Positions 6,912 to 60,220 of a stretch of 64,000 nucleotides of DNA are shown here, in pieces. Origin of the DNA: an uncultured Eubacteriales bacterium. GTDB lineage: Bacteria > Acidobacteriota > Aminicenantia > Aminicenantales > UBA8522. Position 1 is the first letter of the stretch; the number at the start of each line of letters is the position of its first letter. Location of the stretch: positions 6,614 to 70,613 of the forward strand of contig CAYUKK010000005.1 in NCBI GenBank assembly GCA_964445305.1, in the 5' to 3' direction. The position numbers were made by a program, and so were the translations under genes. The notes below the pieces were generated by a model. It did no database searches and was not told the DNA's origin. It worked only from the letters and a program-made list of their open reading frames with translations.

Positions 6912-8980
6912 TGGAGTTCTTGCTCGAAATCATCACCGAAGAGATGCCCGCTTCCCACATCAAAGCTGGATTGGCCCAGCTCGAAGAGAAGCTCAAAGCT
7001 GAGCTTATCGCGGCTCGCTTGCCCGTCCAGGGCCTCCGCACTTTCGGCACCTGCCGGCGGCTCGTGGTCGTTGCCGACATCCCGCCCCGGCAGGAGAGCA
7101 AGGAAGAAGTGGTCGTTGGCCCTCCCAAAGCCGTGGCTTATGGTGCTGATGGCTCGCCCACCGAGGCAGCCCGAGGGTTTGCCCGGGCTCAGGGAGTGGC
7201 CGTGGACAGGCTGGAGGTTATCCCGACGCCCCGGGGCGAGTATGTTGGAGTGAAGAAGGCCATCTCTGGCCGAGGGGCTGAAGAAATTTTGGCCGAGCTT
7301 CTCCCGTCCATCCTCTCTTCCCTCTCCTTCCCCAAAATGATGAGGTGGGGGGAGGGGACATTGCGGTTTTCGAGGCCGATCAGAAACATCCTCTGTCTCT
7401 TGGGAGGAGAGCCTGTCACCTTTTCACTGGCCGGCCTCGTTTCGACAGGTTTCACCACCGGCCATAAGCTCCACTCCCCCCACAAGCTTCCGGTCAAATC
7501 TTTTGCTGAATTCAAGAGCTTGCTCCGCCAAAACAAAGTCATTCTCGACCCCGCCGAAAGAAAGGAGATCATTTGTCGTAATATTGACAAGAGGCTGCGG
7601 CGATGGCGCGCCTCCCTCCATCCTGATGATGAACTCCTGGACAGGCTCGTCTATGATGTGGAAAATCCCTATGTGTTCATGGGCACATTTCCGTCCCCTT
7701 ATCTCAAGCTGCCGCTCGAAGTGCTGAGCGCGGCGATGCGCGAGGGCCAAAAGCTCTTTTCCGTGGTCAGAAGCGGTCGCCAGTTGCCTCATTTTATCGG
7801 CGTGGCCGACGCGCCCGGGGACCCGCGGTCGCTCATTCGCCAGGGAAATGAGAGGGTTCTCCTGGCCAGACTCGAGGACGCAAAGTTTTTTTGGGAACAG
7901 GACAGGAAAGTTCCCCTGGCCAAAAGAGGACCAGGGTTGGCCCGGATAATTTTCCAGGAGAAGCTTGGCACTTACAAGGACAAAGTTGGGCGATTGAAAG
8001 CACTGACCAGCTACATCTGTGAGAAGATTGATGAGCCCAAGTTGAAGAAAGATGCTCTCACGGCGGCTGAACTGTGCAAGGCCGACTTGCTTACGGAAAT
8101 GGTCAAGGAATTCCCGGCTCTCCAGGGCGTCGTGGGCGGCCTTTACGCCAGGGCGGAAGGATATCCGGAGGCCGTGGCTCAGGCCATCTATGAACACTAT
8201 AAACCTATTGGCCTGGAGGACAGCTTGCCCGCTTCCTTGGGAGGCGCGGTGCTTTCCCTGGCGGACAAGCTGGATTCTCTCGTCGGCGTCGTTGGTCTGG
8301 GCATCCTTCCCTCTGGCTCCAGCGACCCCTTCGGCATCCGCCGGAATGCCAACGGCGTTTGCCGAATCATCCTGGAAAAGAAATTTGTCCTTTCTTTAAA
8401 TCAGCTTCTAAGAAAGGCTCTTTCCCATTACGGCGAGCTTCCGCTCAGGCCGCCGGCCGAGGTCCTCGATGACTGTCTTAACCTCTTTAACCAGCGGCTG
8501 CGCTCCATTTTTGAAACGCAAGGTTACCGTTATGACCTTATCAACGCGGCCTTGGGCGCGGGCATCGATAACGTTTACTTTGCTGGTCGGAGGCTTAAGG
8601 CTCTGGAGACCCTCCGCCAGAGCCCTTCTTTTGTTCCCTACGTCCTCATGGCCAAACGGGTCAACAACATCATCCGGGACGCCCCTCGTTCCATGGTGAT
8701 TCCTGAGCTGTTCGAGGCCAGGGAGGAGAAGGAGCTCCATGCGATGTTTTCCATCATCGAAAAGAATGTCGGGCCTCTCCTCGAAGCAGGCGATTTTGGA
8801 AAAGCCCAGAGCATGATCCTCAAGCTCCATGGCCCCCTGACCACCTTCTTCAACCGGGTTCTCGTGATGGCTGAGGATAAGAAAACGCGGCGCAACCGCC
8901 TGGCCCTGCTTCAAGCTATCAGCCAGCTCTTGCTCCGCGTCGCGGACTATTCCCAGATCGTCGTTGAAGGCGAGAAGTAA
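6911..8980 (+). CDS. glyS: glycine--tRNA ligase beta subunit
   Basis: 689 aa. Overlaps the glyQ stop (TGATG). N-terminus MEFLLEIITEEMPASHIKAG is typical of GlyS. Confidence 0.9.
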   Translation: MEFLLEIITEEMPASHIKAGLAQLEEKLKAELIAARLPVQGLRTFGTCRRLVVVADIPPRQESKEEVVVGPPKAVAYGADGSPTEAARGFARAQGVAVDRLEVIPTPRGEYVGVKKAISGRGAEEILAELLPSILSSLSFPKMMRWGEGTLRFSRPIRNILCLLGGEPVTFSLAGLVSTGFTTGHKLHSPHKLPVKSFAEFKSLLRQNKVILDPAERKEIICRNIDKRLRRWRASLHPDDELLDRLVYDVENPYVFMGTFPSPYLKLPLEVLSAAMREGQKLFSVVRSGRQLPHFIGVADAPGDPRSLIRQGNERVLLARLEDAKFFWEQDRKVPLAKRGPGLARIIFQEKLGTYKDKVGRLKALTSYICEKIDEPKLKKDALTAAELCKADLLTEMVKEFPALQGVVGGLYARAEGYPEAVAQAIYEHYKPIGLEDSLPASLGGAVLSLADKLDSLVGVVGLGILPSGSSDPFGIRRNANGVCRIILEKKFVLSLNQLLRKALSHYGELPLRPPAEVLDDCLNLFNQRLRSIFETQGYRYDLINAALGAGIDNVYFAGRRLKALETLRQSPSFVPYVLMAKRVNNIIRDAPRSMVIPELFEAREEKELHAMFSIIEKNVGPLLEAGDFGKAQSMILKLHGPLTTFFNRVLVMAEDKKTRRNRLALLQAISQLLLRVADYSQIVVEGEK

Positions 8981-45129: not shown

Positions 45130-45462
45130 ACAGTCCTAGAAGTGCCCCACAAAAAAGGGCGATCTTTCGCTGACTCATTGGATATCTGCCAGAGACATCG
45201 ATTTTCATCTGGATAGGCTAAATTTGGGCTGATTTTTTGGTTACAATGGGGTCTACTCACTAAATGAGAGGAGAATCTCACTCGGAGAGTTTCCAGAGGA
45301 AAGCCCATGGATTGTGCCAGAATCGCCGCAAAATTGCGAGAGCAAATCGTCCAATTCTCGGGGGAACTTTCTTCTGGACTTCCGAAGGGCGGGCCTGGAA
45401 CCCGCGGACAAGCAAAAAGCGCCGGAAATCACCCTGACTTCTCCATTCGGTTAAAGAGAGAA

Positions 45463-45783
45463 TCACAAAAAATATTCAGCGGGGGCCTCGGTGGCCATCA
45501 GAAGCTCCTGATAGACGATGCGGTGGGGGATATAGAGAAGAAGTGTCTCCTGCATCCACTCACTTGACACTCCTCCAGCCTCTCGGCGTGGCAAGAAAGA
45601 CAGAACCCCCGGGTGCGGTAGGAGAAAATCATGAGGCGCTCCACATGGCATTAGGGACAGCGAATGCGGGAAACCCACGACTCGGGTGGCCGCAGTCAGG
45701 CGTCGTTGCGAGGGGCGAAGCGACGCGGGAATCTTGTTTCCCGGGCGAGGCACGACGGGATTACGATGGCTCTGTGGCCTCAT
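45463..45783 (-). pseudogene. remnant of an IS200/IS605-TnpA- or RAYT-like Y1 transposase gene (copy A; C-terminal end only)
   Basis: Ends ...LLLYIPHRIVYQELLMATEAPAEYFL*. This shares the (I/V)VYQE(L/F)L...AEY C-terminus with the copy at 53485-53889 and with fragments at ~51095 and ~60050. No intact HUH motif. Confidence 0.3.
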
Positions 45784-46178
45784 GATGACCTGCGGTCAGT
45801 TCTATAATGGCCGGCCGAAGGAACTCATAATCCTTCTCGAAGCGCGACTTATACCCAGCAAGAAATTTATCCAAGTAATGAAACAACACTCGGTAGAGGA
45901 TCGTCTGTTTGGGGTGCCGAAGGCGATAGTTTCCAACTATGACAGGAGAATGGCCTCAAGAAAGGGGCCATTGTTATGGGGCCAGCCGCTCTTCCTGAAA
46001 AGAGGGAAGGAGTCCCCCTCAGGAAAACAGATTCCAAGCCATAAACTATCCACCTAAATTGACGCCCAGCCTAGAGAATAGACACGCTAGCAGACTAGCG
46101 GAATCGTCATCGGCGTCGAGGCCATAGACGCTAAGGCTGAACGAGGATGAATGCATCGTCATTGAAATCAGGTACAGC

Positions 46179-46739
46179 TTACATGTTTAGCAATAACCTC
46201 CGGAGTTCGTTGCCCAAATCTTGAACCCTAGTCACTTTAAGGGCTTTGCAAAGGGCCTTGATAAAAGGATCGCTCATAACATCTTCTAAAGCCTCAGGTG
46301 AAAAAAGGCTGGGCTCCATAACCACTCCTCGGCTTTGTTCCCCGCACGAATTAATGGGACATGACTTCAGCCCCCTGCAATCCTGTTGGCCGCAACCGTT
46401 TTTATCACAAGATTTTAGAGGGATGGAAAGAGTCGTGCCACTACGCAGCTCGATGAAGAGACCACATTTCTCACCACCACCAGGATCGGGAATAAAGCCG
46501 GTCGGGAGGCCACCGAATTCGCTCAAGAAAATCTCATCCCTCGGGAAAAGTAGCGCTTTGATCATTTTTGCTTTAGTCGATAGAGCGCCGATGCGGACCG
46601 TAGCTTCCAATTCGGCTTTTGAGACTCGGGTTTGAGCTGAGATCAGACCAGCTTTTGTGGCACCCACGCCTGCTAGCCCAGCCGAAAGCTGCGCCAACTT
46701 GCTGAGAACTTCTCTTCTCGTCAATCGATTGTTTTTCAT
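46179..46739 (-). CDS. Tat-signal Cys-pentad-repeat protein, paralog 1 (putative substrate of the adjacent radical SAM/SPASM enzyme)
   Basis: 186 aa. N-terminal RREVLSKLAQLSAGLAGVGA (twin-Arg plus hydrophobic region). Repeats CDKNG/CGQQD/CRGLKS/CPINS/CGEQS. Conserved C-terminal SDPFIKALCKALKVTRVQDLGNELRRLL. Confidence 0.6.
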   Translation of the reverse strand: MKNNRLTRREVLSKLAQLSAGLAGVGATKAGLISAQTRVSKAELEATVRIGALSTKAKMIKALLFPRDEIFLSEFGGLPTGFIPDPGGGEKCGLFIELRSGTTLSIPLKSCDKNGCGQQDCRGLKSCPINSCGEQSRGVVMEPSLFSPEALEDVMSDPFIKALCKALKVTRVQDLGNELRRLLLNM

Positions 46740-46778
46740 TGTTTTCGCCTTTAAAGATTTTTGTCTTATTAGATTCGA

Positions 46779-47336
46779 TTAACGGACCAAAAGCCTTCGG
46801 AGCTCGTAGCTCAGACCTTGCGCTGTTGTCACCTTAAGTTGCCTGCAAAGGGCAAGAATGAACGGGTCGTTCATGATCTGTGATAATTCTCTTTCGGAAA
46901 AAATGTTTGATTCACCCGTGAGCATCCCTTGCTTCGGGCAGTAATTTTCCTCACACCCTGACAACTTCGAGCATTTCTGATCTTCGCACCAGTTATAATC
47001 ACAGTCGGCCAGATTGCCACATTTCTGTTTAGAACACGTCTGGCCCTCGAAAAAAAAGTCACATTTTTCTCCTCCCGGGAATGCAGAGAACATGCCCAGA
47101 GGAACACGGCCGAATTCCGCCTGGAAGACATCACGTTGGGGAAAGAGCAGCACTTTGATCGCCTTAGCCATCGCCGCTTCGGCTTTGACGCCAGTGAGGC
47201 TTTCCAAGTCCTTTATTCCGATTCGCGTCTGAGCCCATGAGCTTGCAGGCTTGAGACTGCTGACGCCGCCAAGCAGAGCCAGAAGCTCCATCAATCGCTT
47301 AAAAGCTTGACGCCTGGTAACCTTTTGATTTCTCAT
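46779..47336 (-). CDS. Tat-signal Cys-pentad-repeat protein, paralog 2
   Basis: 185 aa. TRRQAFKRLMELLALLGGVS. Repeats CSKQK/CGNLAD/CDYNW/CEDQK/CSKLSG/CEENY/CPKQG. C-terminal NDPFILALCRQLKVTTAQGLSYELRRLL. Confidence 0.6.
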   Translation of the reverse strand: MRNQKVTRRQAFKRLMELLALLGGVSSLKPASSWAQTRIGIKDLESLTGVKAEAAMAKAIKVLLFPQRDVFQAEFGRVPLGMFSAFPGGEKCDFFFEGQTCSKQKCGNLADCDYNWCEDQKCSKLSGCEENYCPKQGMLTGESNIFSERELSQIMNDPFILALCRQLKVTTAQGLSYELRRLLVR

Positions 47337-47339
47337 TAT

Positions 47340-48734
47340 TTACCCTCCTTTGAAATTTAGTTTTTTTAGGTTGCGGTCCTTATCGGCTGCCTGATATAGC
47401 TCGACAAGGGCCCAAAACTTTTGCGATATCTCCAATTCTCTGCTCATTCTTTTCAAGCAGTAATAAAAGAAAATATTTTCATCAAGATAATATTTCCAGG
47501 TGTGGCAGCTCACTTTCCCCGTCTTTCCGTAGACATAAGGACATCCTCCCATGCAGATTGGCAGGAGCTTGCAGGAGGCGCATTCGAGGTCAAATGGGTT
47601 TCGCTGCCGCCACCTTTCGAGATTCTTCTGCCAGTCTGCCGAGGCCGACTCGAGGAGGTGTCCGACCTCTGCGTGCGATTCAGCTACCTCGTTCCAGCAT
47701 TTAACAATGCCGCCGCGCGGGGTGATGGCGTAGGCGCATTCATGATCCGCCATACAGAAAATATTTCGGCTTTTCGGCACACCAAAAGAGCGGAAGCCCC
47801 GCCTCGCCATTTCGATAGAGGTTTCGAGCTCGAGCAGGGAAAAGTCGTCCTCGCTTAGGCACCATCCGGAGATATCCTGGCAGACCGATGTATAAGCGTA
47901 CGTACGACCTATGTAGAAGCCAACACGCTCTTTTAATGCCTCGCTCTCCAGGATCTCCATTAGATCTAGAATATGATCCTTGTTTGTTTCATCGACGTTC
48001 ATCCGGATGTGGATTTTGAGCTTCGAAGTCGCCTCATGAATATTTTTTAAAATTCTATGGAATGTTCCTCTGCCGTCGGCGAGCGGCCGCCTCCGGTTAT
48101 GAACCGCGGGGGGCCCATCGAGCGTGACTTGGATATGGCTGATCTTGAGTTGGGCCAGCTTTTCAGCGGTCTTGAGGTCAAGCAGGTATCCATTAGTCAC
48201 CATGTCAGCGCTGTAATCAGCTCCGCAGTTCTGGCAGATTTCGATAAACTTTTCCGAAAGGCGTTCGATTAACGACCGGAAGAGCAACGGCTCGCCCCCA
48301 AACCAGGTGACATTGAGCGATTTATGGCTGAACATCCTTTCTTGGACAAATCGGATAACCGCGTCTTCAACGTTTCCGGCCATCGAGGCCGGGTTCCTCT
48401 CTTGGTAACAATAGACGCACCTGAAATTACAGGCCAGGGTGGGGATGATGGTCATGCTCAGGACGCTCTGATCGGTGCACCCCATCTTGTAGTTCTCCTT
48501 CAAAGAGGCGATTTCATCGGCGTCGTCAGGGATCAGGAATCCGTGGTTGATCAGAGCATTCAGAATTTGCGTTGAATTCTTTGCTTTCCAATCTCGGTTG
48601 GGGTTATATAGAATCCGTTTAGCCAGACCAGCTTCGTAGCCTCTTAAAGCAAGGAGCGAAAGAGTATAGAAATTTAGGAAGAGCGTTGTTCCATTGGGAA
48701 GTCTAAGACAATAGTTATACAAAGAAGCTTTCAA
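47340..48734 (-). CDS. radical SAM / SPASM-domain peptide- or protein-modifying enzyme with a ~95-aa N-terminal RRE-like extension
   Basis: 464 aa. CNFRCVYCYQ (CX3CX2C). C-terminal SPASM cysteines CASCKLLPICMGGCPYV. 3-nt and 7-nt gaps to the flanking paralog genes. Confidence 0.8.
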   Translation of the reverse strand: MKASLYNYCLRLPNGTTLFLNFYTLSLLALRGYEAGLAKRILYNPNRDWKAKNSTQILNALINHGFLIPDDADEIASLKENYKMGCTDQSVLSMTIIPTLACNFRCVYCYQERNPASMAGNVEDAVIRFVQERMFSHKSLNVTWFGGEPLLFRSLIERLSEKFIEICQNCGADYSADMVTNGYLLDLKTAEKLAQLKISHIQVTLDGPPAVHNRRRPLADGRGTFHRILKNIHEATSKLKIHIRMNVDETNKDHILDLMEILESEALKERVGFYIGRTYAYTSVCQDISGWCLSEDDFSLLELETSIEMARRGFRSFGVPKSRNIFCMADHECAYAITPRGGIVKCWNEVAESHAEVGHLLESASADWQKNLERWRQRNPFDLECASCKLLPICMGGCPYVYGKTGKVSCHTWKYYLDENIFFYYCLKRMSRELEISQKFWALVELYQAADKDRNLKKLNFKGG

Positions 48735-48741
48735 AGTCCGG

Positions 48742-49299
48742 CTACCTCCGAGCGCTCATCATGTTGAGGAGCTCCTGCGAAAGCTGTTCAGCCGTAGTGA
48801 CATTGAATTCCTTGAAGAGGGCTTTGACAAACGGGTCGGATTTGTGCATGTTCAAAAAATCCTTTGAGCTTGAATCGATATACATCGTGCAGGTCAGGCC
48901 AGTGCAGTTCTGTTTTGAACAATCATTCTCATCGCAGGACTTCAGACCGCAGGTCTGGTTCACACATCCATTTTTCCCACAGGAAGAAGACTGCATGGAG
49001 GATGGTGTCGGCGAGAAAAAGTCGTCACATTTTTGAATCACCCCAAGATCTCCCGATCCCGCCATCAAGGGTGCTCGTCCGAACTCATTGATATAGATTT
49101 CCCGCGTCCCTATAACCAAGATCTTGAGAGATTTTGTCTCTCTGGATAGGGCCTGTGCTTTGGCCAGAGCATCGAAATTGATGCGTCTCGTCTGAGCGAG
49201 AAAGGCCCGAACCTGGGTAGCACTCAGGCCAGCGGCCAGACCGATGATCTTGATCAGACGAGAGATGGCTTCTCTTCTTGAAAGGTGGTTAACTCTCAT
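48742..49299 (-). CDS. Tat-signal Cys-pentad-repeat protein, paralog 3
   Basis: Start set at MRVNHLSRREAISRLIKIIGLAAGLSA (SD AAGGAG 9 nt upstream), giving 185 aa. Repeats CGKNG/CVNQT/CGLKS/CDEND/CSKQN/CTGLT/C. C-terminal SDPFVKALFKEFNVTTAEQLSQELLNMM. Confidence 0.6.
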   Translation of the reverse strand: MRVNHLSRREAISRLIKIIGLAAGLSATQVRAFLAQTRRINFDALAKAQALSRETKSLKILVIGTREIYINEFGRAPLMAGSGDLGVIQKCDDFFSPTPSSMQSSSCGKNGCVNQTCGLKSCDENDCSKQNCTGLTCTMYIDSSSKDFLNMHKSDPFVKALFKEFNVTTAEQLSQELLNMMSARR

Positions 49300-49789
49300 C
49301 AGAATGCTCCTTGGTGAATCATAATGAATCCTATTAATAAGAGACAGAAAACCGCTTTCCCATCTCACTCGAAGGAGAAAATTTTGTTGATTAGGACTTC
49401 ACAACTATCCACCGTTTGGCTCTGAATTTGCTGCTCGGCCCAGAAGATTAGATATTGGGAAAATGATGATTTGATGCCTCTCCTCGGCAAATATAGGAGA
49501 TTTCTTTTCGGCTGTGGTAACTGGGAGGCATCTTAATTATCATTTTCCTGTTTAGCCATCGCCAAGAGATATGAATCACGAAAAAAATGGATGTCAAAGA
49601 CAATTAAAAGCAGTACCTAGTGGGCGAAAATGCATCATAAGCCGCCTCGGCGCCGGGAAAATGCTGAAAATCAGGGGGACATTTCCTTCTGGTCAAAGGA
49701 AAGATTATGAAAAATAATAGGCCGAAGCCTTGGAGTCCAAGAAGAATCCCGGGAGACCCTATGAGGCGGTGGGGGCTTCGAGGCGATAA

Positions 49790-50150
49790 AGGTCAGGTTG
49801 AGGTGGTTGATGTTCCTGTTCACGACCGCAGTGTCTGTCAAGAAGGCGATGATCTTCATCATGGCGCCCCACTTGGGGCAGGTCGAGGGGTCGATTTCAA
49901 AAACCTTGAGGATCATCTCGGCCCAGCCTCGGCGGGGACGGGCTGGAGCTCCTCTTCGACAATACAAAGAGGAAAGAGTGCGAGGCTTGACTTGCGGACC
50001 TTGCCCTGATGGGCGTTGGCATACAACCCGTAATAACGCACCGCGACCTGACCCTTGTCGGGAATGTGGGAGGCGACCCGGGCGATGAACTCTGGGTAGT
50101 CTATCTGCTTCGCCTCTTGGTTGCTTTCCCCACATCCGTGGCAGGAGCAT
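49790..50150 (-). pseudogene. IS91-family (Y2 HUH) transposase C-terminal fragment, frameshifted and N-terminally truncated
   Basis: Two overlapping frames give ...DYPEFIARVASHIPDKGQVAVRYYGLYANAHQGKVRKS and then ...WAEMILKVFEIDPSTCPKWGAMMKIIAFLTDTAVVNRNINHLNL. This matches the IS91-type C-terminus (RYYGxYxN ... CPxCGxxMxIIAxI ... HLGL). No HUH/Y2 catalytic part remains. Confidence 0.5.
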
Positions 50151-50436
50151 CTGTTGGCGGCTCTTCTTGATGAACCCGGCATCGCTCGCGACGTCCCCGT
50201 CTGGAAGTTCATGTTTCCTGCGACTGGAGGGGAAATCAGATTTTTCGACCCCCTCGGTGTCATTCCCAGGCGTGAGTGAGGGTCCGCCCACCAGGATTTT
50301 TTTCGAGATCTTCTCCCGTTTTTCCAAAGATTTGGAGATTGTTAAGGCGTGACCCTAAAATTTGACAAATTAAATAATTTTAATATGAAATAATTGTATA
50401 ATAAAATTAATATTTCCTTAGTTGCGAGGTTATCAG

Positions 50437-50931
50437 ATGGAAATAGAAAAAATCCGATTTCTCAGAGAGAAGCTCCGTTATATGGAACGGCAGATGAGCG
50501 ACGCCTTCGGCCGCGATTCAGGTTGCTGCGGCCTGACCCTGGCCCAATGCCACAGCCTTCTCGAAGTCGGCTACAAAGGCAAGGTTTCGCTCGTCGAACT
50601 GGCCTCGAGCTTAAGTCTTGACACAAGCACGCTCAGCCGGATGATCCAGGGTCTCGTCCTCCTCGGCTTGGTCAATCGGGAGACAAGCGAGAAGGACCGC
50701 CGTTATGTCGTCATCTCCCTCACGAACCAGGGTCGCACAGCATTCGACGAAATCGAAGCGAGATTCAATTCCTACTTCACCCAGGTCATGGAGTTTATCC
50801 CTGCGGAAAAGCGGGAGGCCGTGATCGAGTCGATTGGGCTCTTCTCCGATGCGGTCAGAAAGCAGAGCGAGTTTTCCAGCTGTTGTCAGGCCGACGACGA
50901 TTTGAGCGAAAACGGAAACGCCACAGGATAA
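50437..50931 (+). CDS. MarR-family transcriptional regulator
   Basis: Start at MEIEKIRFL (SD GAGGT). Winged HTH LVELASSLSLDTSTLSRMIQGLVLLGLVNRETSEKDRRYVVISLTNQGR. Preceded by an ~80-nt AT-rich promoter region (50340-50420). Confidence 0.7.
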   Translation: MEIEKIRFLREKLRYMERQMSDAFGRDSGCCGLTLAQCHSLLEVGYKGKVSLVELASSLSLDTSTLSRMIQGLVLLGLVNRETSEKDRRYVVISLTNQGRTAFDEIEARFNSYFTQVMEFIPAEKREAVIESIGLFSDAVRKQSEFSSCCQADDDLSENGNATG

Positions 50932-51530
50932 AGGCGACCATCATGGAGGATTCAGAGATGGACCAAGAAAAAAGTCCCACCCTGGGTGAAAAAGGGGATA
51001 AGAAATTCGTTTTTCTGCTGTGCTGGCTAACTGAGTATCCGGGCATCAATTTCGCCTCATCCCATCGGAGGTGATGATAAATAGGGGCATCTTCGGATTC
51101 TACCAAGAACTGGTCGAAGTAATAGAACAACACCCGGTAGAGGAGGGGGCGCTCTTGACGCCGAGGTCTGGAGACTCCTGCCACAATAGAAGCCATAAAT
51201 CAAAAAACGGGCCAAGCCCAGGGACAGGACCTTCTCTGCCTGAGAGAGCGGCAAGAGCCCCAACCCGGAAGGACAAACCAGGTCTATGAAATGTCAAAAA
51301 AGCTCTTATATTGCAATCAAACGACTGGATCCCGCTTTCCCAATCAAATGTGAGAATCGTTCTTTGAGCGGCCGGTCTCTCTTTGCGGAGATGGTCGGAC
51401 GGTGATTGTCGACGGCAGGCCGAAGAGAGTCGTCTTCACGGTGACTGAACAATTTGCTCTCAAGTGATTTCCCTCCCAACGGATAGCATGAGCCCGAAAG
51501 GAGGGACGGCCAATTAGAGTGTATCCCGCG

Positions 51531-52787
51531 CTAAAAGATGCGGAAGATGTTGAAACCGACCCGGAAATCGCCGTCTCTCAGACTCAAATCGCCCCCGGGG
51601 AGGTATTGAGCAGCGGTCAGGCCGATCGAATTGGTGACAAAAAACTGGAATACATGCCCGCCAATATTCTTTTCAACGCCCAGTCCCCAGCCAGGATAAC
51701 GATCGTTGTAGCCGGCCAGATGTGGAACCCATTCTGCGATGACGGAGACTTCGTCGAAGACCACGAAGCGCCCTCCGATCCCCAGGGCGAAGGTGCCTTC
51801 CGAATCCGGTTCCCAGAAATTGGTATTGGAGGAAAACGCCGGAACGAGCAGGAGTGAGACCCGGTCGTTGAGCTGGCAGGACAGGCTCACCAGCGCACTG
51901 AGCCGGAACCGGCCTGACCATTCTGCCCCGGGGGGCTCATCCTGGCTAACCAGGCTTCCCCCGGTGTGGAGAGAGGCTGAAAAGGGGAGGGAGCCGTTTC
52001 CTCCCTGTTCAAGGAAGGCCCAATCGACGTTGAATTCCCATTCCTGATAGAGCCTGCTTCGTCCGATCGTCATCATCAGGTCATCTGTTATGCCGTAGCC
52101 GAAGCTGAAGAGGATGTAGGCCGTTCCGTCGAGACCGAAGAAAGAATTCCAACCGCTGGAGACAGCCGGTTGAAAACGGTGCGATATGCGAAACAGGAAA
52201 TCCCCTTTGCCTGGGGTTACGGTTGTCGGTAGGTTGACCAGCCTGGTTCCCCAGAAGACGGGTCTGGAATATCGTCTGGGATTGGAGCTTTGGGCTGGGC
52301 TCTTGCTTTTTAGATTCGGCTGTCTGAACTCGGGGCCGCGGCTAATGAAACCGGGATTGAGAATACCGTTTGCGTCGGTGGAGCTTGCGGCCAGGCTCTT
52401 TATCCACTCCTCGATTTGGCGGATTTGCTCCTCAGTCAAGGGATCATGGTTTAGGGGCATGCGCTTGCCGACAATCCCGGCCGCTCCTTTGACCTTTGCG
52501 ATTAGGTCGCTTTTTTCGGGCGCACCTGGTTCGACAATCTTGAGTTCAGCCTTCTTCAGGCTTGATATCCCGAGAACCGAAGCGAGGAGCGTTTCTTGTT
52601 CCAGGCTTAGGTTGGCCGAAGGGTTTTTGCCCGAATGACAACCTGCGACACTGCAACTTTGCTTCATTATGCTCTTGACTGTGGCCAGAAGATTTGTCGG
52701 AGAATCTCCAGGCCCCTGGCTGTAAAGAGGCGAGCTCAGTGCGAAAAGCACCGTGACCTTGATAATCAACAGGACCTTGGTTTTCAT
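51531..52787 (-). CDS. exported protein with an N-terminal PSCyt1-like cytochrome-c-type domain (CX4CH) fused to a C-terminal beta-barrel (terminal Phe)
   Basis: 418 aa. Signal peptide MKTKVLLIIKVTVLFALSS. MKQSCSVAGCHSG ... GKRMPL ... EEQIRQIEEWIKSLA. Glycine/aromatic-rich C-terminal half ending GFNIFRIF. Confidence 0.5.
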   Translation of the reverse strand: MKTKVLLIIKVTVLFALSSPLYSQGPGDSPTNLLATVKSIMKQSCSVAGCHSGKNPSANLSLEQETLLASVLGISSLKKAELKIVEPGAPEKSDLIAKVKGAAGIVGKRMPLNHDPLTEEQIRQIEEWIKSLAASSTDANGILNPGFISRGPEFRQPNLKSKSPAQSSNPRRYSRPVFWGTRLVNLPTTVTPGKGDFLFRISHRFQPAVSSGWNSFFGLDGTAYILFSFGYGITDDLMMTIGRSRLYQEWEFNVDWAFLEQGGNGSLPFSASLHTGGSLVSQDEPPGAEWSGRFRLSALVSLSCQLNDRVSLLLVPAFSSNTNFWEPDSEGTFALGIGGRFVVFDEVSVIAEWVPHLAGYNDRYPGWGLGVEKNIGGHVFQFFVTNSIGLTAAQYLPGGDLSLRDGDFRVGFNIFRIF

Positions 52788-52859
52788 CCGGCTACTCCTG
52801 TCATGGGGACTTTATTTTGCCAAGTAATCATTCCGGAAATTCGAGCCTTCCCCAAGGGT

Positions 52860-53294
52860 TCAATTATTCTTGGCCCCTTTGTTGATCCAGTTCTTAATGT
52901 TCTGGACGGAATTGGCGTTGAGAGCTGATCCGCCAAGGGGCATCCGGCCGCCGTTTGTCTGCCGGCCTTCGAGTTTGATGACGAGATAACTATTCGTAGC
53001 GTCGTTGGGGATAACCCGCCTTTTCCCCGGTTCTTGGGTTGAGGGCACGTCGACGAGGTTGGCATAAGACTGCCCCTGGAGAAGAATCAATCCCGCCGCA
53101 GCGCTGTTACCGTGGCAGCTTGATGAAATGCAGCTCTGGCTGAAGATCGGCTGAATATCTGAGGCGAATGAGGGATCCTCTTTGACTATGGAGGGGGGCT
53201 GGGGACTGGTGGGGGAATAGCTGCCACAGTGATAGAGAATGACCGCTGCAAGGATAGCTAGGATTGCTATAACGGGCCACGATTTTATGTTCAT
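52860..53294 (-). CDS. exported PSCyt1-like cytochrome-c-type domain protein (CX4CH), paralogous to the N-terminal domain of the upstream gene
   Basis: Start at MNIKSWPVIAILAILAAV (SD AAGGAG), 144 aa. FSQSCISSSCHGN ... GGRMPL ... VQNIKNWINKGA. Confidence 0.5.
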   Translation of the reverse strand: MNIKSWPVIAILAILAAVILYHCGSYSPTSPQPPSIVKEDPSFASDIQPIFSQSCISSSCHGNSAAAGLILLQGQSYANLVDVPSTQEPGKRRVIPNDATNSYLVIKLEGRQTNGGRMPLGGSALNANSVQNIKNWINKGAKNN

Positions 53295-53484
53295 CAGGAG
53301 ACTCCTTATAAAATCTACAAATATTATAGGAATACTAGGAAAAAAAATCAAGTAGCCCTGGCAGAATAGTGGAGGACGGGTCAGGAAGCCGCAGATAGGT
53401 CTAAGAGCCCGGTAATCAGCCAGACCTTTCCTTTCGGGCGAACTGAAGATCATGAACAGTATTCAGCTAAGGTCTCAGCAGCCG

Positions 53485-53889
53485 TCAGAAATTCCTGATA
53501 GACGATATGCGGCACATGGGGCCTCTTGGCGATGAAGGCCAGCTTGAGGCAATGATTGATTTTGACCACCATGGATAATCAGTGGGGAAGGAGATGACCC
53601 ACATGATGCCTCTGCACTGGGCACAAATCAAGAGATTATCGTCGTCCACTTTTCGGACCATTTCGGCCCGGCTTTTGGTGGGGAGACCCAGGAGTATGAC
53701 CTCGAAGACCAGGAAAAGGATTCTTCGTTTCGGCAAAAAAGCCATGTAGTGAAGACCAACTCTCTTGAAAAGGATGGAAGCGATTCGATAAAGTTTGATG
53801 TATTCATCAGAAAAGTCTGCCGCATGGAAGACGGAAGCCCCATCACTACTGGATCCTGTTGGAATCCTATAGGACGGCAGGTGGGCCAC
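53485..53889 (-). pseudogene. degenerate IS200/IS605-TnpA- or RAYT-like Y1 transposase gene (copy B): HUH degraded to HYM, 1-nt indel before the catalytic-Tyr region
   Basis: 134-aa ORF. GLHYMAFLPKRR (cf. HVHLLVSIPPK). YPWWSKSIIASS (cf. LWSRSYFAGS). After a 1-nt frame correction the C-terminus reads ...PHIVYQEFLTAAETLAEYCS*, matching copy A. Confidence 0.35.
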
Positions 53890-54149
53890 TTCAGCGCTTT
53901 GTTGACAATAAAGGATATAGACCTAAAGAATCTTCAAATTTGTCGAACTTTGGTTAAGCCAAGGGCCCCGAATTTTCGATTACCAAGGGCTGCCCGTTTC
54001 GACTGCTGTGATTCGGTTACTGTTTGGGAAAGTGGCCGCCGCTTTGAGTCTTCGACAGAAGAATTAAGGTAAAAACACAAAAAACAAAAGGATAAAGGCG
54101 GCAAGAAATTTATACAGCCGAAGTCTGTGTCTCGCAAGTCTTCAGGAAA

Positions 54150-54332
54150 TCAGCGTGATAAATAGGCTAAGACTGCATGAATAATGGCCGTAACGAGCAG
54201 GAGAAGTCCCAGGCGGCGGTGCAAGATGAAATTCACTTTCAGATACCTTTTCCCGCTGCCGATTTGAAAAAAAATCAGCAGCAGGTTGATAATACCCAGA
54301 ATCAGGACAAAAGAAACTCCCCCGATGGTCAT
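54150..54332 (-). CDS. small two-TM membrane protein (hypothetical)
   Basis: 60 aa, two hydrophobic helices. Immediately downstream of the SOR-like gene. Confidence 0.3.
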   Translation of the reverse strand: MTIGGVSFVLILGIINLLLIFFQIGSGKRYLKVNFILHRRLGLLLLVTAIIHAVLAYLSR

Positions 54333-54350
54333 TTTATTTTCCTCGTTTTT

Positions 54351-54722
54351 TTATTCCTCAATTTTTATTTTTACTCTGGCCGGGCCGGCGCTGCCGTGCA
54401 GGTTGCAGTTAGCTTCAGCCTCTATTTCCGTTTCTTCTTTAACAATCAGTTTGACTTCTCGGGTAAAGTTCTCCGCCTCCGGCCGGCTGTTTGAAGAAAA
54501 ATTCCAGCGGGCGATTTCCTTCTTGTTGGACATGACTACAAGCCGGTTGGTGTGATGGAGGCTACTGTTTCCCCGGTGGGTGACGTGGATGATGATGGTC
54601 ACTTCCTCACCGGCTTTAACTGAGGCCGGCGCCTTGATGGAGACCGCTGACTTATTGGCCAGGACCGGCGTTATCAGCAGACTTAAAATAAGCAAGGAAC
54701 CGAATAAGAATCTCTCTTTCAT
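54351..54722 (-). CDS. signal-peptide protein with a superoxide-reductase (desulfoferrodoxin Fe-domain)-like fold
   Basis: 123 aa. Leader MKERFLFGSLLILSLLITPVLA. GEEVTIIIHVTHRGNSSLHH aligns with SOR GELVKVKVQVGKEIPHPNTTEHH. C-terminal CNLHG matches the SOR CN(I/L)HG Cys/His ligand motif. Confidence 0.45.
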   Translation of the reverse strand: MKERFLFGSLLILSLLITPVLANKSAVSIKAPASVKAGEEVTIIIHVTHRGNSSLHHTNRLVVMSNKKEIARWNFSSNSRPEAENFTREVKLIVKEETEIEAEANCNLHGSAGPARVKIKIEE

Positions 54723-54986
54723 GCCATCTCCTTTGTAATTGCTAAAAATTGTCGTTGAAGTGATATTATACCCGACTTTCGCTTATGACGAATAGATCGC
54801 ATTCAATCAGGTAAAATGTTACCGAAAGACGCGCCGCCCCGCCACTGCTCTTAGCTTCATCCACTCTGCCTTCAGTCACCGAGAAAATCTCCATCTTCTC
54901 TAATAAACTTGGGATTTCGGTTCAGCCGTTTGCCGAAGAAATCCGCTGGCCAGGGCCAAAGATTGGACTGATATTTTTTAGAGTTG

Positions 54987-56069
54987 CTATCTCTTAGGGA
55001 CCGGCGGGTAGTAGATCAAAAGATAAGAGACGCGCTCGGATTCGCCGATGTAGATTTCGCCGTTCGGTCCGACGGCCAGAGCGCTGATGTCATAGCAGAC
55101 CCAGTTTTTGGGGAAATGGACCATCGGGATACCCAGGTCCTTGACTTCTCCGGTCCGGGGATTCCAGCGAAAAAGATGAGAGTTCTTTCCCGGGCTTCCG
55201 GCGGCACCGTAGAGGACTCCCTCTTTCCCAAAAGCCAGGGCTCTGATCCGGTGGTCGGAAATTGGCCGGCCGTAGCCGATGATTTTAAGAGTCTTGGTGT
55301 TCAGGCTGAAGATTGTTCCCAGGAGCGTACCGCCGTAAATCGTTTTCTGGCCATCGAACACGGTAGAGTCAAGAGCATTGAGGAACTCCATTCCCTTCGG
55401 CGACGGAAGCTGGAGGTCAAGCGTCTCCACCCTTTCGTTGGCGATCGAATAGCGGAAGATATGACCGTTTTTCGCCGAGCCGAAGATATGGCCGCGGCTG
55501 TCGAGGGCCATAGCATTGGATTTTTCAGCGCCCTCGATGGCCTGAATCTTCCGGCTCGTCCTTTTTTCTATATCGATTTCGACGAGAGCGGATGTCTTCC
55601 GGGTCAGAGCGAAAATCTTTCCAACCCCTGGCTCCAAGACAGCACAGGCCGCATCTTCATCCAGCGCAAAATCAAGGAATTCGATAGGATTGACTTGGTA
55701 TTTCCAAAGGACGGAGAACTCACCTTCAGGAGAATAACGAAAGAGTCGTCCGGAAGGGTTGACGATTCCCCAGATGACTCCGCTCCCGTCTTTCATCAGC
55801 AGCCGGCATTCCGCATCTTCTCCCAGAACGCCGATGTCGACAACGTGTTCGGCTGCCGGGCTCGGATCATAATAAAACAAATGGGATTTTTTTCCTGAAG
55901 TTGCGCCGTAGATTTTTTTCTGCTTCTCCCCGGGGACAAGCGCCGTGATCGCCGATTCGCCGTTCGGGATGGGTGGCGTAACTCCATAATGGCCGAGTTC
56001 TCGGAGGGCCAGCGTTCCTTCGGTGATGAAAGCGAAGGCCCCATCGCGAAAATCGGCTGTGCCGGTCAT
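54987..56069 (-). CDS. beta-propeller-fold hypothetical protein (paralog 1)
   Basis: Start at MTGTADFRDGAF (SD AAGGAG). Repeated ~45-aa blades with G-x-hydrophobic patterns (IYGGTLLGTIF, VLYGAAGSPGK). Confidence 0.4.
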   Translation of the reverse strand: MTGTADFRDGAFAFITEGTLALRELGHYGVTPPIPNGESAITALVPGEKQKKIYGATSGKKSHLFYYDPSPAAEHVVDIGVLGEDAECRLLMKDGSGVIWGIVNPSGRLFRYSPEGEFSVLWKYQVNPIEFLDFALDEDAACAVLEPGVGKIFALTRKTSALVEIDIEKRTSRKIQAIEGAEKSNAMALDSRGHIFGSAKNGHIFRYSIANERVETLDLQLPSPKGMEFLNALDSTVFDGQKTIYGGTLLGTIFSLNTKTLKIIGYGRPISDHRIRALAFGKEGVLYGAAGSPGKNSHLFRWNPRTGEVKDLGIPMVHFPKNWVCYDISALAVGPNGEIYIGESERVSYLLIYYPPVPKR

Positions 56070-56153
56070 GATTTCCGACTCCTTAAGGTGGTAGCTCGGC
56101 TCGGCCCCACGTTCGTTTTCGCGCTGGGGATGATTTTTTTCTTTATTCGTCAT

Positions 56154-57329
56154 TCATCTCCTCCAGTCGAGAGAGTCAAGATCGACCATGAGAAGTCGGG
56201 GAACGGCCTTCATGTTGACCTCGGCAAAATAAAGGGTCCGGCCGTCTGGTCCCAGGGCTCCCTCAGAAAGCCAGGCAGTCGCATTATCTCCGAAATCGAG
56301 ACGCGCAACGACCCTGCGCTGACCACTCTCGATATCCAAGACCACAAGGTTCGTCGGTTCCCAGATGGTGTTGCACCCGTAAAAAAGCCAGCGGTTTTCA
56401 TAAAGGACCGGAGCCTGGACATAAGGGGGCGTCCAGTCGCGGCCGTTCCATCCCCCCGGCCAGCCGAAGCCGTAGTCCTCAATAGCCGGCACGGGTCCCG
56501 CATCCGGGTTAATCCGGAAAATATGGCCGTCGTAATATCCCGTAGCACAGATGAAATCGTCCCGAAATCTTTTGGCGTTGAAAAAGAAATTGTAGAGGCG
56601 CTCGCGGCCCGGAATGCCAGGGACGCGAAGCGGGAGGTCCTCGAACTCATCTTTTTCGGGCGAATAGCGGAAGAAGCGGCCTTCGTCGTAGGATCCGTAG
56701 ATGAGGCCTCGCGCATCGGCGAAAATTTCGAACCCGCCCCAGGTTCCAATTCGGCCCACAAGCCGTGACTGACAGGAGGCAAGGTCGTATTCATAGAGAC
56801 AGTGCCGCGGGTAGCTAACGAGATAGGCCCTGTTCAGGCGTTCGTTGATCTCCATTGATCGGCAGCCCTCATGAGGGATGGCGAGGCCAACGTATTCGGC
56901 TTCACCCGTGGCCAGTTTGACCCGGAACATCTGCGCTCCGCGAAACCCGTAAATCGGGTCGCCAAAAGTCCCGTTCACCTCGAAAAGCTTTTCCCCTAAG
57001 CAAGGGGCCGTACAGTGGCTGACTCCGTAGAGAAAGCCGTCTTCTGTTTCCCGAAGGCAGGTGTGGATCTTGCTCTGAGGGACCCGGCCAGAGTCATAAG
57101 GATCGTCGGCCAGCTCGCCGATATCGAAAAGGTCCCAGAGGCGTTTCTCCTCCGGGTCGAAGCGGAGAAGATGAGCGCTCGAAGCCCGGCCCTCGCTACA
57201 GCTTGAAAAGTAGATCCGACCGTCGCTGGCCGAATGGACGGCCCAAAGGCTGTCGTGGTTCGGGTCGACACTCCAGGTCGAAATTTTGAAAGCGCCGAAT
57301 TCAGAAAGATGAAATTCAACCCTTTTCAT
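56154..57329 (-). CDS. beta-propeller-fold hypothetical protein (paralog 2)
   Basis: 391 aa. Colinear with paralog 1 (FHLSEFGAFKIST vs DFRDGAFAFITEG). Confidence 0.4.
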   Translation of the reverse strand: MKRVEFHLSEFGAFKISTWSVDPNHDSLWAVHSASDGRIYFSSCSEGRASSAHLLRFDPEEKRLWDLFDIGELADDPYDSGRVPQSKIHTCLRETEDGFLYGVSHCTAPCLGEKLFEVNGTFGDPIYGFRGAQMFRVKLATGEAEYVGLAIPHEGCRSMEINERLNRAYLVSYPRHCLYEYDLASCQSRLVGRIGTWGGFEIFADARGLIYGSYDEGRFFRYSPEKDEFEDLPLRVPGIPGRERLYNFFFNAKRFRDDFICATGYYDGHIFRINPDAGPVPAIEDYGFGWPGGWNGRDWTPPYVQAPVLYENRWLFYGCNTIWEPTNLVVLDIESGQRRVVARLDFGDNATAWLSEGALGPDGRTLYFAEVNMKAVPRLLMVDLDSLDWRR

Positions 57330-57342
57330 GGCTCGGCGAGTC

Positions 57343-58200
57343 TTATTTTAGCATCAGGAGGACGATGCCTGCCAGGCCGATGACAATTCCGAGATAGCCT
57401 GTCGGTCTGATTTTCTCTCTAAAAAAAAGAAGAGAGAGGAGCACAGCGGCGACGACCGGAGCCGAAAGGACGACGGGAAAGACAATAGTCTCCGGAAGCT
57501 TCGTCAGGGCTTTGAGGGTAAAAAAGTTACCGGCCACGCTTCCGGCTGCCGCCAGCGCTCCGAAAGAGAAGACGTTTCCGTCCAGCCGGATCTTCTTCGC
57601 GGCGAAAAAAATCATGAATGCGAGCGCTCCGAAAAGAAAGGTCAGGAAAAGGTAGAACCATAAATTGAGGGCGCTCAGCCGCACAGCCGCGGCCTGAGAT
57701 AATTGAGGAATTCCGGCCAGCAAGAACGCCGCCGCCAGGAAGAGCAGCCACCTTAGCCAAAGCCCTGTCCTTTTATTTTCAGCCGTCGAGCCGGAGGTTG
57801 AAATAAGGGCGATGCCGATGACGATAAAGATGATCCCGAGAGCCAGGATTGTCCCGAATGATCTCTTCCAGAAAATGACAGAAAAGACGACGGGGATGAG
57901 GAACGTCATCGTGTAAATCGAAATGGTCAGAGCATAATTTCCGATTTTGAGAGCACTGAGGAAAAAGAAATAGGCTACCGCGCCGCCGACGCCTCCTCCG
58001 GCGGCGAGGAGGACGACCGGAAGCGAGATGTGGAGCGGTTGGCGCAGGAAAAGGAGAAAAAGACAGCAGAAAAAAGAGGCCATCGCGAACAATGAGCCTG
58101 TCAGCGTGGCTGAGGAGTGTCCTTTGAGGCTTCCCATTTTCATGACGAAATTCGTAACGACAAACCCGGCGACAACCAGCGCGAGAAAGACCCAGCCCAT
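57343..58200 (-). CDS. DMT-superfamily (EamA-like) transporter
   Basis: 285 aa, ~10 TM helices, two EamA-like halves. Confidence 0.65.
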   Translation of the reverse strand: MGWVFLALVVAGFVVTNFVMKMGSLKGHSSATLTGSLFAMASFFCCLFLLFLRQPLHISLPVVLLAAGGGVGGAVAYFFFLSALKIGNYALTISIYTMTFLIPVVFSVIFWKRSFGTILALGIIFIVIGIALISTSGSTAENKRTGLWLRWLLFLAAAFLLAGIPQLSQAAAVRLSALNLWFYLFLTFLFGALAFMIFFAAKKIRLDGNVFSFGALAAAGSVAGNFFTLKALTKLPETIVFPVVLSAPVVAAVLLSLLFFREKIRPTGYLGIVIGLAGIVLLMLK

Positions 58201-58313
58201 GTTCTCTCTCTCCTTTTCAAGCCGAGATCGACCAGGATTTCGTTTTCAATTCGTGCCTCCCGCCAAATTTTCCCGGAGGCAAGAAAATGGGCCACCGCTC
58301 TTCGCCCCGGATC

Positions 58314-59057
58314 TCAGTCATCGAAGTTCACCAAAGTCATGATGTTTTCCGAAAAGACCATCCGACGTTCTTTTTCCGTTAGCGGCAGGAGACGGATCTT
58401 TTCGATTTCGAGCAAAACCTCCTCCTTCTGGGAAAAGCCGAGGTCAGTGCCAAATAAAAGTTTTCCGATAGGAATAGTAGATATCATCTCTTTGACCGCG
58501 GAAAAGGGAGAAGCAGCCGGGCAGAGATAGATATTCTGATACTTCTTGGCCACGGCCAGGGCATCGAGCCAGAGGTCCTTAAGCCCCGCCTCGCCGAGAA
58601 TGAGTTTGGCTTCGGGAAATTTTCGGGCCAGGTTGCCGATCTGAGTCGGGCAAGCATAGGGAGGGCTACCGCTGTGGAAAATAATTGGAATGTTGAGGCG
58701 AATCGCCTCCTCGACGACCTTGAGGAAATAGGCATTGGTCAATGAAAACGCCTGCAGCCAGGGATGGACCTTGAGTCCCCTCATCCCTAACTTGAGGACC
58801 GCTCGCCGCAGGTCTCTTACCGCCTGATCCCCCATGTGAGGATCCACCGTAGCGAAAGGATAAAGACGGCCTTCGAATCCCCTGGTTAGAGAAAGAAGAC
58901 GATCGTTTGCGCCCCGGGCGTCAAAGAACCCCTCCAGAGTGAAGACGCAGGCCTTCTCGATTCCGGTCTCGTCCATGATGCGCACGAAATCGCGCGGTCG
59001 GATCCCCCGGAGATTCAGCCAGCGGCCGAAAAGATGGGTGTGGCAGTCGATGATCAT
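58314..59057 (-). CDS. amidohydrolase-2 family metal-dependent hydrolase (TIM barrel)
   Basis: 247 aa. MIIDCHTHLF... metal-binding His-x-His start, with downstream His/Asp. Confidence 0.65.
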   Translation of the reverse strand: MIIDCHTHLFGRWLNLRGIRPRDFVRIMDETGIEKACVFTLEGFFDARGANDRLLSLTRGFEGRLYPFATVDPHMGDQAVRDLRRAVLKLGMRGLKVHPWLQAFSLTNAYFLKVVEEAIRLNIPIIFHSGSPPYACPTQIGNLARKFPEAKLILGEAGLKDLWLDALAVAKKYQNIYLCPAASPFSAVKEMISTIPIGKLLFGTDLGFSQKEEVLLEIEKIRLLPLTEKERRMVFSENIMTLVNFDD

Positions 59058-59770
59058 CGGCTTTTCCCCAGAGCGCGGAGGATGTTGCGCCGAAAAATCC
59101 GTTGCTTGTCGACCGCCTCCCCGAGGAGGTTGATCTTTTTGATCTCCAGGTCGAGCGAGGAAAAGGGAAAGTCGCTACCGAAGACGAATTTCATGATTCC
59201 CGCCTCCTTGATCCAGGCGGAGATCTGCGAGGGCAAAACATAAGAAGTTTCGATGAAAAGGTTCGGGCAGCGGCTGAGCGCATCGGGGATGTCGTTCCAG
59301 AAATCGCAAAATCCGCCGTGGCCCATGATAAAATTGACCCCTGGATACCGTTCCGCCAGTTCCGCAAGCTGAAGAGGCATGGCACAGATCGGGGTTCCGG
59401 TAACGCAATAGACGGGCCAGCCGACTTTCTCGGCAAATTCGATAAGCGGGAAAATCTGGGGGTCGGCTAAAATGAAACCCTGAACAGCCGGGAAAATCTT
59501 CAGGCCGGAGAGGCCAAGCTCAAAGGCTCTTTCGAGCTCCGCCACAGCTTTGCGGCCATACCATGGAGAGGCGACGGCGAAACCGATCAGCCGGTCCGGG
59601 TGGTGGCTGACGGCGGCGGCAACATAGGAATTTCCGGACTTGTTCTCAACGGCGATAAAATTCCTCTCGGGTGCGATGATTGCCCGTTCAATCCCGTGAC
59701 GATCCATCTCGACAAGCAGCTCCCGAACGCGGCCTTTCAATAGAGTGCAAGCGCAATCTATAATGTCCAT
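59054..59770 (-). CDS. amidohydrolase-2 family protein (paralog; N-terminal HxH replaced by CAC)
   Basis: 238 aa. MDIIDCACTLL... Colinear with the downstream paralog. ATGA overlap. Confidence 0.6.
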   Translation of the reverse strand: MDIIDCACTLLKGRVRELLVEMDRHGIERAIIAPERNFIAVENKSGNSYVAAAVSHHPDRLIGFAVASPWYGRKAVAELERAFELGLSGLKIFPAVQGFILADPQIFPLIEFAEKVGWPVYCVTGTPICAMPLQLAELAERYPGVNFIMGHGGFCDFWNDIPDALSRCPNLFIETSYVLPSQISAWIKEAGIMKFVFGSDFPFSSLDLEIKKINLLGEAVDKQRIFRRNILRALGKSR

Positions 59771-60220
59771 GTCCTATCTCTTCCTTCAGCCTGATGTTCG
59801 GGTTCCGAAAGTCCGAATCACAGGCCGCTCATACTGATTTTTCCTCCAGCAAACAGAGAGGCCGGATATCCTTCGCCGCATAGCCCAGATGACTGGGCTG
59901 ACGCCATCCCTCAGCGTACTCAAACCGTTCCGACATGTCACCGACTTTGCGACTCATTTCTTTCATCGTCATGGGATAGGAACCCAGGCCATGGCTTCGA
60001 TCCAGCCAATCCTTTTGAAATGACAGCGGCCACCCGGCTGATTAGCTCCTGATGATAAAAGACGGCCAGGTCATCGACGAGGCTTTCGTGATAAACAGCT
60101 CCGATGGCGAAAATAACCATCTTTCCTCTTCACTCAAACCATCCTGCTTCTTCGTCGCCGGCATGGCTTCTTTCCTGATCCCACCTCATTCTCCTTTCCT
60201 GTCTGTCGAGAAAAGAGGAA

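Follow-up and report, generated by a model that had tools for sequence, protein, structure and literature searches.

The DNA analysed here (the window) is a 64,000-nucleotide stretch of contig CAYUKK010000005.1 from an uncultured Eubacteriales bacterium, in which fragments of a transposase-bearing element lie over ~8.4 kb between intact genes. Read along the minus strand, the locus comprises remnant C, a lipoprotein gene and its DUF5777 neighbour, remnant B', a MarR gene on the opposite strand, remnant E, a peptide operon, remnant A and an NfeD gene; the peptide operon named in this order holds three Cys-rich paralogues and a radical-SAM/SPASM maturase. The debris very probably represents four inactivated, long-dead copies of an insertion sequence (IS) family related to IS91 and ISCR, which are HUH rolling-circle transposons. 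An initial annotation of the window had proposed eroded, once-proliferating tyrosine transposase genes, placed correctly between intact genes and assigned to IS200/IS605 or to REP (repetitive extragenic palindromic)-associated tyrosine transposases (RAYTs); the kind of enzyme, HUH-type, was right, but the family is IS91/ISCR-like.

Remnants in the window

To map the element at the DNA level, a profile was built from 13 full elements of other genomes (1797 positions) and the 64-kb window was scanned with nhmmer. Just four remnants are recovered, each of them on the minus strand, with E-values from 1e-8 to 6e-123 (Table 1), and frameshifts or stops are evident by tblastn in each of the four. Residues ~115 to ~277 of the transposase are absent from every remnant, and with them the HPHLH HUH motif and Tyr257.

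Table 1. Positions of the remnants and of one unrelated reading frame; model positions refer to the 1797-position DNA profile.
Feature	Window coordinates	Strand	Evidence
Remnant A	45351..46146	-	nhmmer, tblastn, Pfam Zn_Tnp_IS91
Remnant A segments	46119-45801; 45697-45520; 45518-45375	-	Model 85-408 (E 1e-40); 428-604 (E 2e-39); 1485-1629 (E 1e-23)
Remnant E (largest)	49461..50145	-	nhmmer 50142-49485 = model 1101-1748, E 5.9e-123
Remnant B' (holds copy B of the initial annotation)	50998..51317	-	nhmmer and tblastn
Remnant B' segments	51297-51093; 51095-50970	-	Model 157-360 (E 2.7e-29); 1646-1769 (E 1.3e-8)
Remnant C	53323..53730	-	nhmmer 53718-53347 = model 1271-1642, E 2.2e-55; promoter scan
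Copy D of the initial annotation	59938..60120	-	60-aa open reading frame, not part of the IS feature

Remnant A retains the left, ter-like end, the 5' untranslated region (5'UTR) and codons 1 to ~114 in its first two segments; codon ~114 (…LLLYIPH) is then joined to codon ~404 (PH-IVYQE…) at 45518-45528 through a shared CCC CAC (Pro-His), and the third segment holds codons ~404-423, the stop (45463-45465) and ~90 nt beyond it. This remnant has frameshifts and an in-frame stop and is without the promoter/ori module, and tblastn recovers aa 3-58, 58-96, 99-114 and 403-422 in three frames. Remnant E spans codons 278-423, carries frameshifts and has Trp in place of a Cys of the CPKCG motif; tblastn aligns it to homologue P0001 at 72% and 62% identity. 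Its 3' region (~205 nt) is complete and includes a promoter-like TTGACA (49597-49592) as well as an ori-type terminus, ...GAAAAGAAATCTCCTAT, whose last base (49493) is followed by ATTT. Remnant B', in which the 5'UTR and codons 1-31 (tblastn aa 3-31, 69% identity) abut the element's final ~100 nt (51095-50998) with nothing in between, is an internal-deletion derivative with its ori end kept; its terminus reads ...GAAAAACGAATTTCTTAT, the last base being 50998. Remnant C comprises codons ~335-423 (tblastn aa 338-383 and 384-423) with one frameshift at 53572 and a stop at 53450-53452, and its 3' end was extended by the promoter scan to TTGATT-N17-TATAAT (53351-53323), nothing of the element being kept beyond the -10. 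A site-specific recurrent breakpoint, suggested by the end of A (model 1629), the end of C (1642) and the restart of B' (1646), was dropped as an exact site because the three break at different points of the promoter-like site: A stops before the -35, B' begins between the -35 and the -10, and C runs through the -10 (53323).

The open reading frames (ORFs) from which the initial annotation worked translate as it reported, and its copies A (45463-45560) and C (53485-53560), both on the minus strand, are indeed homologous, with blastn within the window aligning 45386-45519 and 53373-53506 (69% over 134 nt, E 4e-18). This match extends past the stop codon, and both regions also match 49658-49927, which had not been listed. 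Copies A and C align to residues ~384/403-423 of 423-aa transposases, the C-terminus of which is ...ERPPPPHIVYQEVLMAAETSAEYFS; the peptide reported as shared by all copies is the conserved C-terminal tail (…PPPPHIVYQEVLMAAETSAEYFS, then the stop) of an IS91-family transposase of 423 aa. Copy B (51095-51145) comes from a remnant of this element family too, but was assigned to the wrong strand: the peptide read from the plus strand (GIFGFYQELVEV...) shows no resemblance to the transposase by BLASTP, the true sense being minus, where codons 3-31 of the N-terminus read GVSRPRRQERPLLYRVLFYYFDQFLVESE. In blastn, 51114-51214 matches 45870-45970 on the same strand, that is, the N-terminal part of A and not the tail region. 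The catalytic blocks cited for copy B ('HUH (HYM...FLPKRR)', 'WSKSIIASS' and 'Tyr-x-Glu') proved to be out-of-frame or non-homologous readings, the real HUH/Tyr region being the part that all remnants lack. Copy D (60040-60090) is a chance match, with no similarity by blastn, tblastn, nhmmer (E<=10) or BLASTP; the idea that it is a frameshifted N-terminus of the amidohydrolase gene at 59054-59770 was rejected, as that gene starts normally with MDIIDC. Unlisted in the initial annotation were remnant E, the 5' two-thirds of A (45520-46146) and the 3' ori module of B' (50998-51095). As regards annotation, for which the result is mainly a clean-up of the window, three ORFs (45463-45783, 49671-50327 and 53485-53889) are readings of pseudogenes.

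The intact element and its relatives

A database search returned 941 homologues, the best of which are 423-aa proteins with PF14319 and PF04986, 61-73% identical to the window fragments and mostly from metagenome-assembled genomes of Candidatus Aminicenantes. Full-length relatives exceed the cut-offs of three IS91-family models, with 79.8 bits for Zn_Tnp_IS91 (cut-off 26.3), 90 bits for Y2_Tnp (cut-off 20.9) and 208.8 bits for NCBIfam transpos_IS91 (cut-off 125); the matches of the window fragments to such models are only partial. The peptide rebuilt across frameshifts upstream of copy A (YRLRHPKQTILYRVLFHYLDKFLAGYKSRFEKDYEFLRP...RIRCP.C...FSYRTRGFCLSCHAERLEE.SEWMQETLLLYIPHR) matches Pfam Zn_Tnp_IS91 at E 4.5e-5 and 23.8 bits, below the cut-off, and the peptide rebuilt from 49.7-50.1 kb (...EFIARVASHIPDKGQVAVRYYGLYANAHQGKVRK...WAEMILKVFEIDPSTCPKWGAMMKIIAFLTD...) matches Y2_Tnp (E 1.9e-6, 28.5 bits) and transpos_IS91 (E 2.7e-11). 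Y1_Tnp (PF01797) gave zero matches at E<=1 with the fragments and zero at E<=0.01 with the full-length relatives.

The catalytic motifs were located by alignment with the canonical IS91 TnpA (with its orf121) and with ISCR1. The HUH motif of the relatives is HPHLH at aa 174-178 (H174/H176/H178), invariant in 12 relatives and aligned with the HPHIH of IS91, and the catalytic residue is Y257 in ERVGKY, a single Tyr where IS91 has VYFGSY and ISCR1 has ERLCRY. The Y-x3-Y ('Y2') signature of the IS91 family is absent, its first Tyr being replaced by Arg in the relatives, as in ISCR1. These data bear directly on the proposed assignment of the remnants to eroded Y1 transposase genes of the IS200/IS605 type or to RAYTs, enzymes that likewise belong to the HUH superfamily, use a single catalytic Tyr and share its single-stranded DNA (ssDNA) chemistry. 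We regard that proposal as almost certainly wrong: fragments and full-length relatives match only Zn_Tnp_IS91 and Y2_Tnp/transpos_IS91, sequence and profile similarity to IS200/IS605 TnpA and RAYTs is zero, and the ancestral protein, which has a zinc domain and a length of 423 and not ~140 aa, is very different in size and domains from Y1_Tnp (~130-150 aa). The motifs cited in its favour are frame artefacts, and around the copies there are neither REP arrays nor any family of REP-like palindromic repeats. The 'Y1' label is mechanistically apt for an enzyme with the single Tyr of ERVGKY, though not in the IS200 sense.

Comparison of 84 loci from genome assemblies gives an intact element of ~1.65 kb, encoding a 423-aa transposase with the N-terminal zinc domain, HPHLH and the single catalytic Tyr. 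Upstream conservation reaches ~165 nt 5' of the ATG, starting near the palindrome CGTCAAC-N4-GTTGACG (the left, ter-like end), which shows the compensatory variants TGTAAAC/GTTTACA and GACAAC/GTTGTC. Downstream, conservation reaches ~205 nt 3' of the stop, through a post-stop block, TTGACA (>=90% conserved), N18, TATnnT, ~75 nt and the terminus, with the outward-facing TTGACA-N18-TATnnT sitting ~100 nt before the terminus in ~80 ends. The conserved right terminus, ...GAAAAGgAAATTCYTAT, corresponds in position to the oriIS of IS91/ISCR, and the flanks past it are unrelated, biased to CYYT/CTTT/ATTT across ~70 ends. RNAalifold predicted zero consensus folds for the post-stop block, the 3' module on either strand or the left end. 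In IS91/ISCR elements, terIS precedes the gene and outward promoters lie in a downstream oriIS region (PMC13181058, PMC6218425), that of ISCR1 being 232 bp long and containing POUT promoters (PMC6218425); as far as the sequences indicate, the layout of this element agrees with theirs.

Transposases of the family are ~26-33% identical, over >90% of their length, to those of plasmid-borne ISCR1, ISCR2/ISVsa3 and IS91, and they share with ISCR the single catalytic Tyr in ER(V/L)xxY and an N-terminal Y-x-R-x-x-P-x-x-T-x-LY extension. The elements also resemble ISCR in a ~200-230-nt region 3' of the gene, with outward promoter-like hexamers and a putative ori terminus at its end, and in having unrelated cargo genes nearby. 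In contrast to ISCR, the score with NCBIfam ISCR_clade_Ia is 137 bits, below that ISCR-specific model's cut-off of 925, the left end is conserved with a palindrome where ISCR1 is without a recognisable terIS, the hosts are uncultured and mostly Aminicenantes, the cargo is not antibiotic resistance, and the window copies are dead. With IS91, IS801 and IS1294 the family shares Zn_Tnp_IS91 plus Y2_Tnp, a transpos_IS91 score above cut-off, an HPHxH that lines up with the IS91 motif and a size of ~1.6-1.8 kb; its ends, too, look asymmetric, with a subterminal palindrome on the left and a different terminus on the right. It differs from IS91 in having one Tyr and not YxxxY, in being without orf121, in the flank after the ori end (CYYT/ATTT-like here versus CTTG/GTTC; PMC13181058) and in that an ori-end hairpin was not detected.

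Several other loci contain the ~110-nt 3' module (promoter-like site plus ori terminus) alone, with a sharp 5' edge right at TTGAC, which hints that the module may move or arise independently. Such solo modules occur at 1227-1354, 3867-3999 and 7608-7721 of locus L066, 7789-7901 of L049, 6474-6589 of L014 and 1511-1632 of L071; their upstream flanks are unrelated, and two of the L066 copies are near-identical. Elsewhere in the family, the element of locus L032 (1838-2915 and 4351-4471) is interrupted by 1.4 kb of inserted DNA, its two parts overlapping by 8 nt at model 1622-1629 as if a nested IS had duplicated its target, and locus L019 (978-2817) has its post-stop block duplicated in tandem.

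Number, age and orientation of the copies

The initial annotation had treated the pieces as remnants of one gene. A single original gene, split by cargo insertions or copied by recent local segmental duplication, would account for all pieces being on the same strand within 8.4 kb, for the rough meeting of the end of C (model ~1667) with the start of the B' 3' module (1646), and for B' (5') and E (3') lying on either side of the MarR gene. We nevertheless consider this explanation highly improbable. Model positions 1485-1629 recur in A, C and E, 1646-1748 in B' and E, and 157-360 in A and B', and these overlapping coordinates therefore require at least three to four separate element copies. Identity between window copies is 47-67%, compared with 65-80% to copies in other genomes; the window copies are thus closer to those of other genomes than to each other, which points to different family lineages and not to local duplication. 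C and B' share no overlapping segment, and one element split by a 2.2-kb insertion was considered for that pair; the combination of B' and E into a single copy with MarR in place of its middle was rejected, B' having its own ori end, which is 47% identical to that of E.

Synonymous-site divergence, on which a claim of protein-level conservation had been based, fell away with the spurious codons of copy B. Genuine pairs differ about equally at the three codon positions (5/6/8 between A and C, 17/12/17 between E and C), and the codon changes in the A-C tail are 3 synonymous versus 9 non-synonymous. This flat distribution fits neutral decay and not the proposed synonymous-site pattern.

A census of the family in 79 other loci comprises 18 full-length copies, 56 that are 5'-truncated with the 3' terminus kept and 22 that are 3'-truncated, many of the last being halves of internally deleted copies similar to A and B'. 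Across these loci, fragments >300 nt away from the main copy share its orientation in 36 cases and have the opposite one in 6 (p = 3e-6), and the array in the window is therefore typical of the family. ISCR-like single-Tyr elements with putative outward promoters and same-orientation fragment clusters are also found well outside clinical Proteobacteria. The copies entered the ~8.4-kb stretch as separate events, all in one orientation, putatively through rolling-circle insertion at target sites adjacent to ori ends, which would account for their clustering in a shared orientation. Decay then followed: A and B' lost internal segments, E and C their 5' parts and A and C their 3' parts, and frameshifts and stops arose. 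The shared orientation may reflect rolling-circle insertions repeated at the tetranucleotide that persists beside a resident ori end, one-ended transposition products that became integrated, or a replication-strand bias. The 5'-truncated copies with an ori end, together with the same-orientation clusters, offer circumstantial support for rolling-circle or one-ended transposition.

On the 99.7%-identical contig L088 of the same metagenome, three more remnants of the IS91-like family lie beyond the end of the window (1500-1645, 4870-5555 and 7209-7633 of L088, equivalent to ~64.9-71 kb): a solo 3' module, an internally deleted copy and an inverted fragment. At least seven remnants are thus present within ~26 kb of this genome.

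Neighbouring genes and candidate outward promoters

The window has a GC content of 0.49-0.51 at 46000-56000 versus 0.53-0.58 in the rest, consistent with an accessory or horizontally acquired region; in annotation terms, 46-54 kb is a low-GC, IS-scarred accessory stretch. Exactly between the ori end of E and the left end of A lies an operon resembling those for ribosomally synthesized and post-translationally modified peptides (46179-49368, minus strand). It encodes three paralogous Cys-rich proteins of 185-208 aa with RR-containing N-termini (46179-46739, 46779-47336 and 48742-49368), which have weak 'Cys-every-fifth CefA' matches, and a radical SAM/SPASM maturase (47340-48734) whose top NCBIfam matches, Clo7bot (315 bits) and TIGR04463 (311 bits), are both below cut-off. 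In the minus-strand region 51531-53453, the 197-aa ORF called at 52860-53453 overlaps IS debris solely by over-extension; the lipoprotein, which has a lipoprotein-type signal, probably starts at M54 (53294). Over its C-terminal ~95 aa it is similar (29% identity) to the N-terminal part of the DUF5777 beta-barrel protein encoded next to it. The neighbour proteins of the window were not found beside the transposase in the 84 other loci and therefore are not part of the element, and comparison of the window with Aminicenantes loci gave zero nucleotide matches outside the IS.

Two of the retained 3' modules face these operons. The -35/-10 of remnant C (TTGATT-N17-TATAAT) is 29 nt upstream of the AAGGAG-ATG (53294) that starts the lipoprotein-DUF5777 operon, and the 3' module of remnant E points into the peptide operon. 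These modules may now serve as promoters, much as the POUT promoters of ISCR1 do, that of C for the lipoprotein and DUF5777 genes and that of E for the radical-SAM peptide operon. A rival reading, in which the conserved segment is functional in itself (a regulatory RNA, an operator or a domesticated small protein) and not transposase debris, could draw on the strong conservation of the 3' module with TTGACA-N18-TATnnT, its solitary occurrence in other genomes and the position of the C module 29 nt before an operon start. We judge it very unlikely, as the shared peptide region encodes the C-terminus in hundreds of intact transposases of 423 aa, an Rfam scan of 44-62 kb at E<=1 gave zero matches, zero consensus fold was predicted and the reading frames are broken; any promoter role would belong to the 3' non-coding module, not to the YQEL segment emphasized in the initial annotation.

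Returning to the reading of the remnants as IS91/ISCR-related debris, we hypothesized that this single-Tyr ISCR-like branch, abundant in uncultured genomes of the Aminicenantes type, builds same-orientation arrays by repeated rolling-circle or one-ended insertion next to resident ori ends, imports cargo operons (here the radical-SAM/Cys-rich peptide operon and the lipoprotein-DUF5777 pair) and leaves ~110-nt ori/promoter modules behind as exapted, possibly trans-mobilisable outward promoters. Taken as a whole, this scenario is conceivable but on balance doubtful. Several observations weigh against the main IS91/ISCR reading and the insertion and promoter roles attached to it. The shared orientation could equally reflect replication-strand bias, which is known for other ssDNA transposons, and not targeted insertion; the target preference is a loose CYYT/ATTT bias, and a conserved ori-end hairpin was not predicted by RNAalifold. 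None of the window copies is intact, which leaves activity of the family in this genome hypothetical. The -10 element of remnant E is degraded in the promoter scan, and genes after ori ends across genomes are co-oriented in 29 versus 19 cases, which is not significant (p = 0.19); for the short remnants alone, a by-eye count gives ~13 versus 5. If the capture and promoter readings were true, the ISCR gene-capture paradigm would extend to environmental phyla, a modest advance. What the window itself contains is real but ordinary genome archaeology, decayed HUH transposase debris that adds a further case of a known element type, with ISCR-like arrays and putative promoter modules in an uncultured lineage as a mildly interesting side issue.

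Two observations concern the part of the window beyond the remnants. The 450-nt gap between an aminotransferase gene and two tandem amidohydrolase genes (59771-60220) holds just the 60-aa ORF of copy D, which matches no family, and is identical in the related contig, which makes it uninformative on constraint. At 14507-15472 of L088, corresponding to window position ~58056 within an EamA gene (57343-58200), that contig diverges and carries an IS1634/IS4-like transposase, a strain-level insertion polymorphism.

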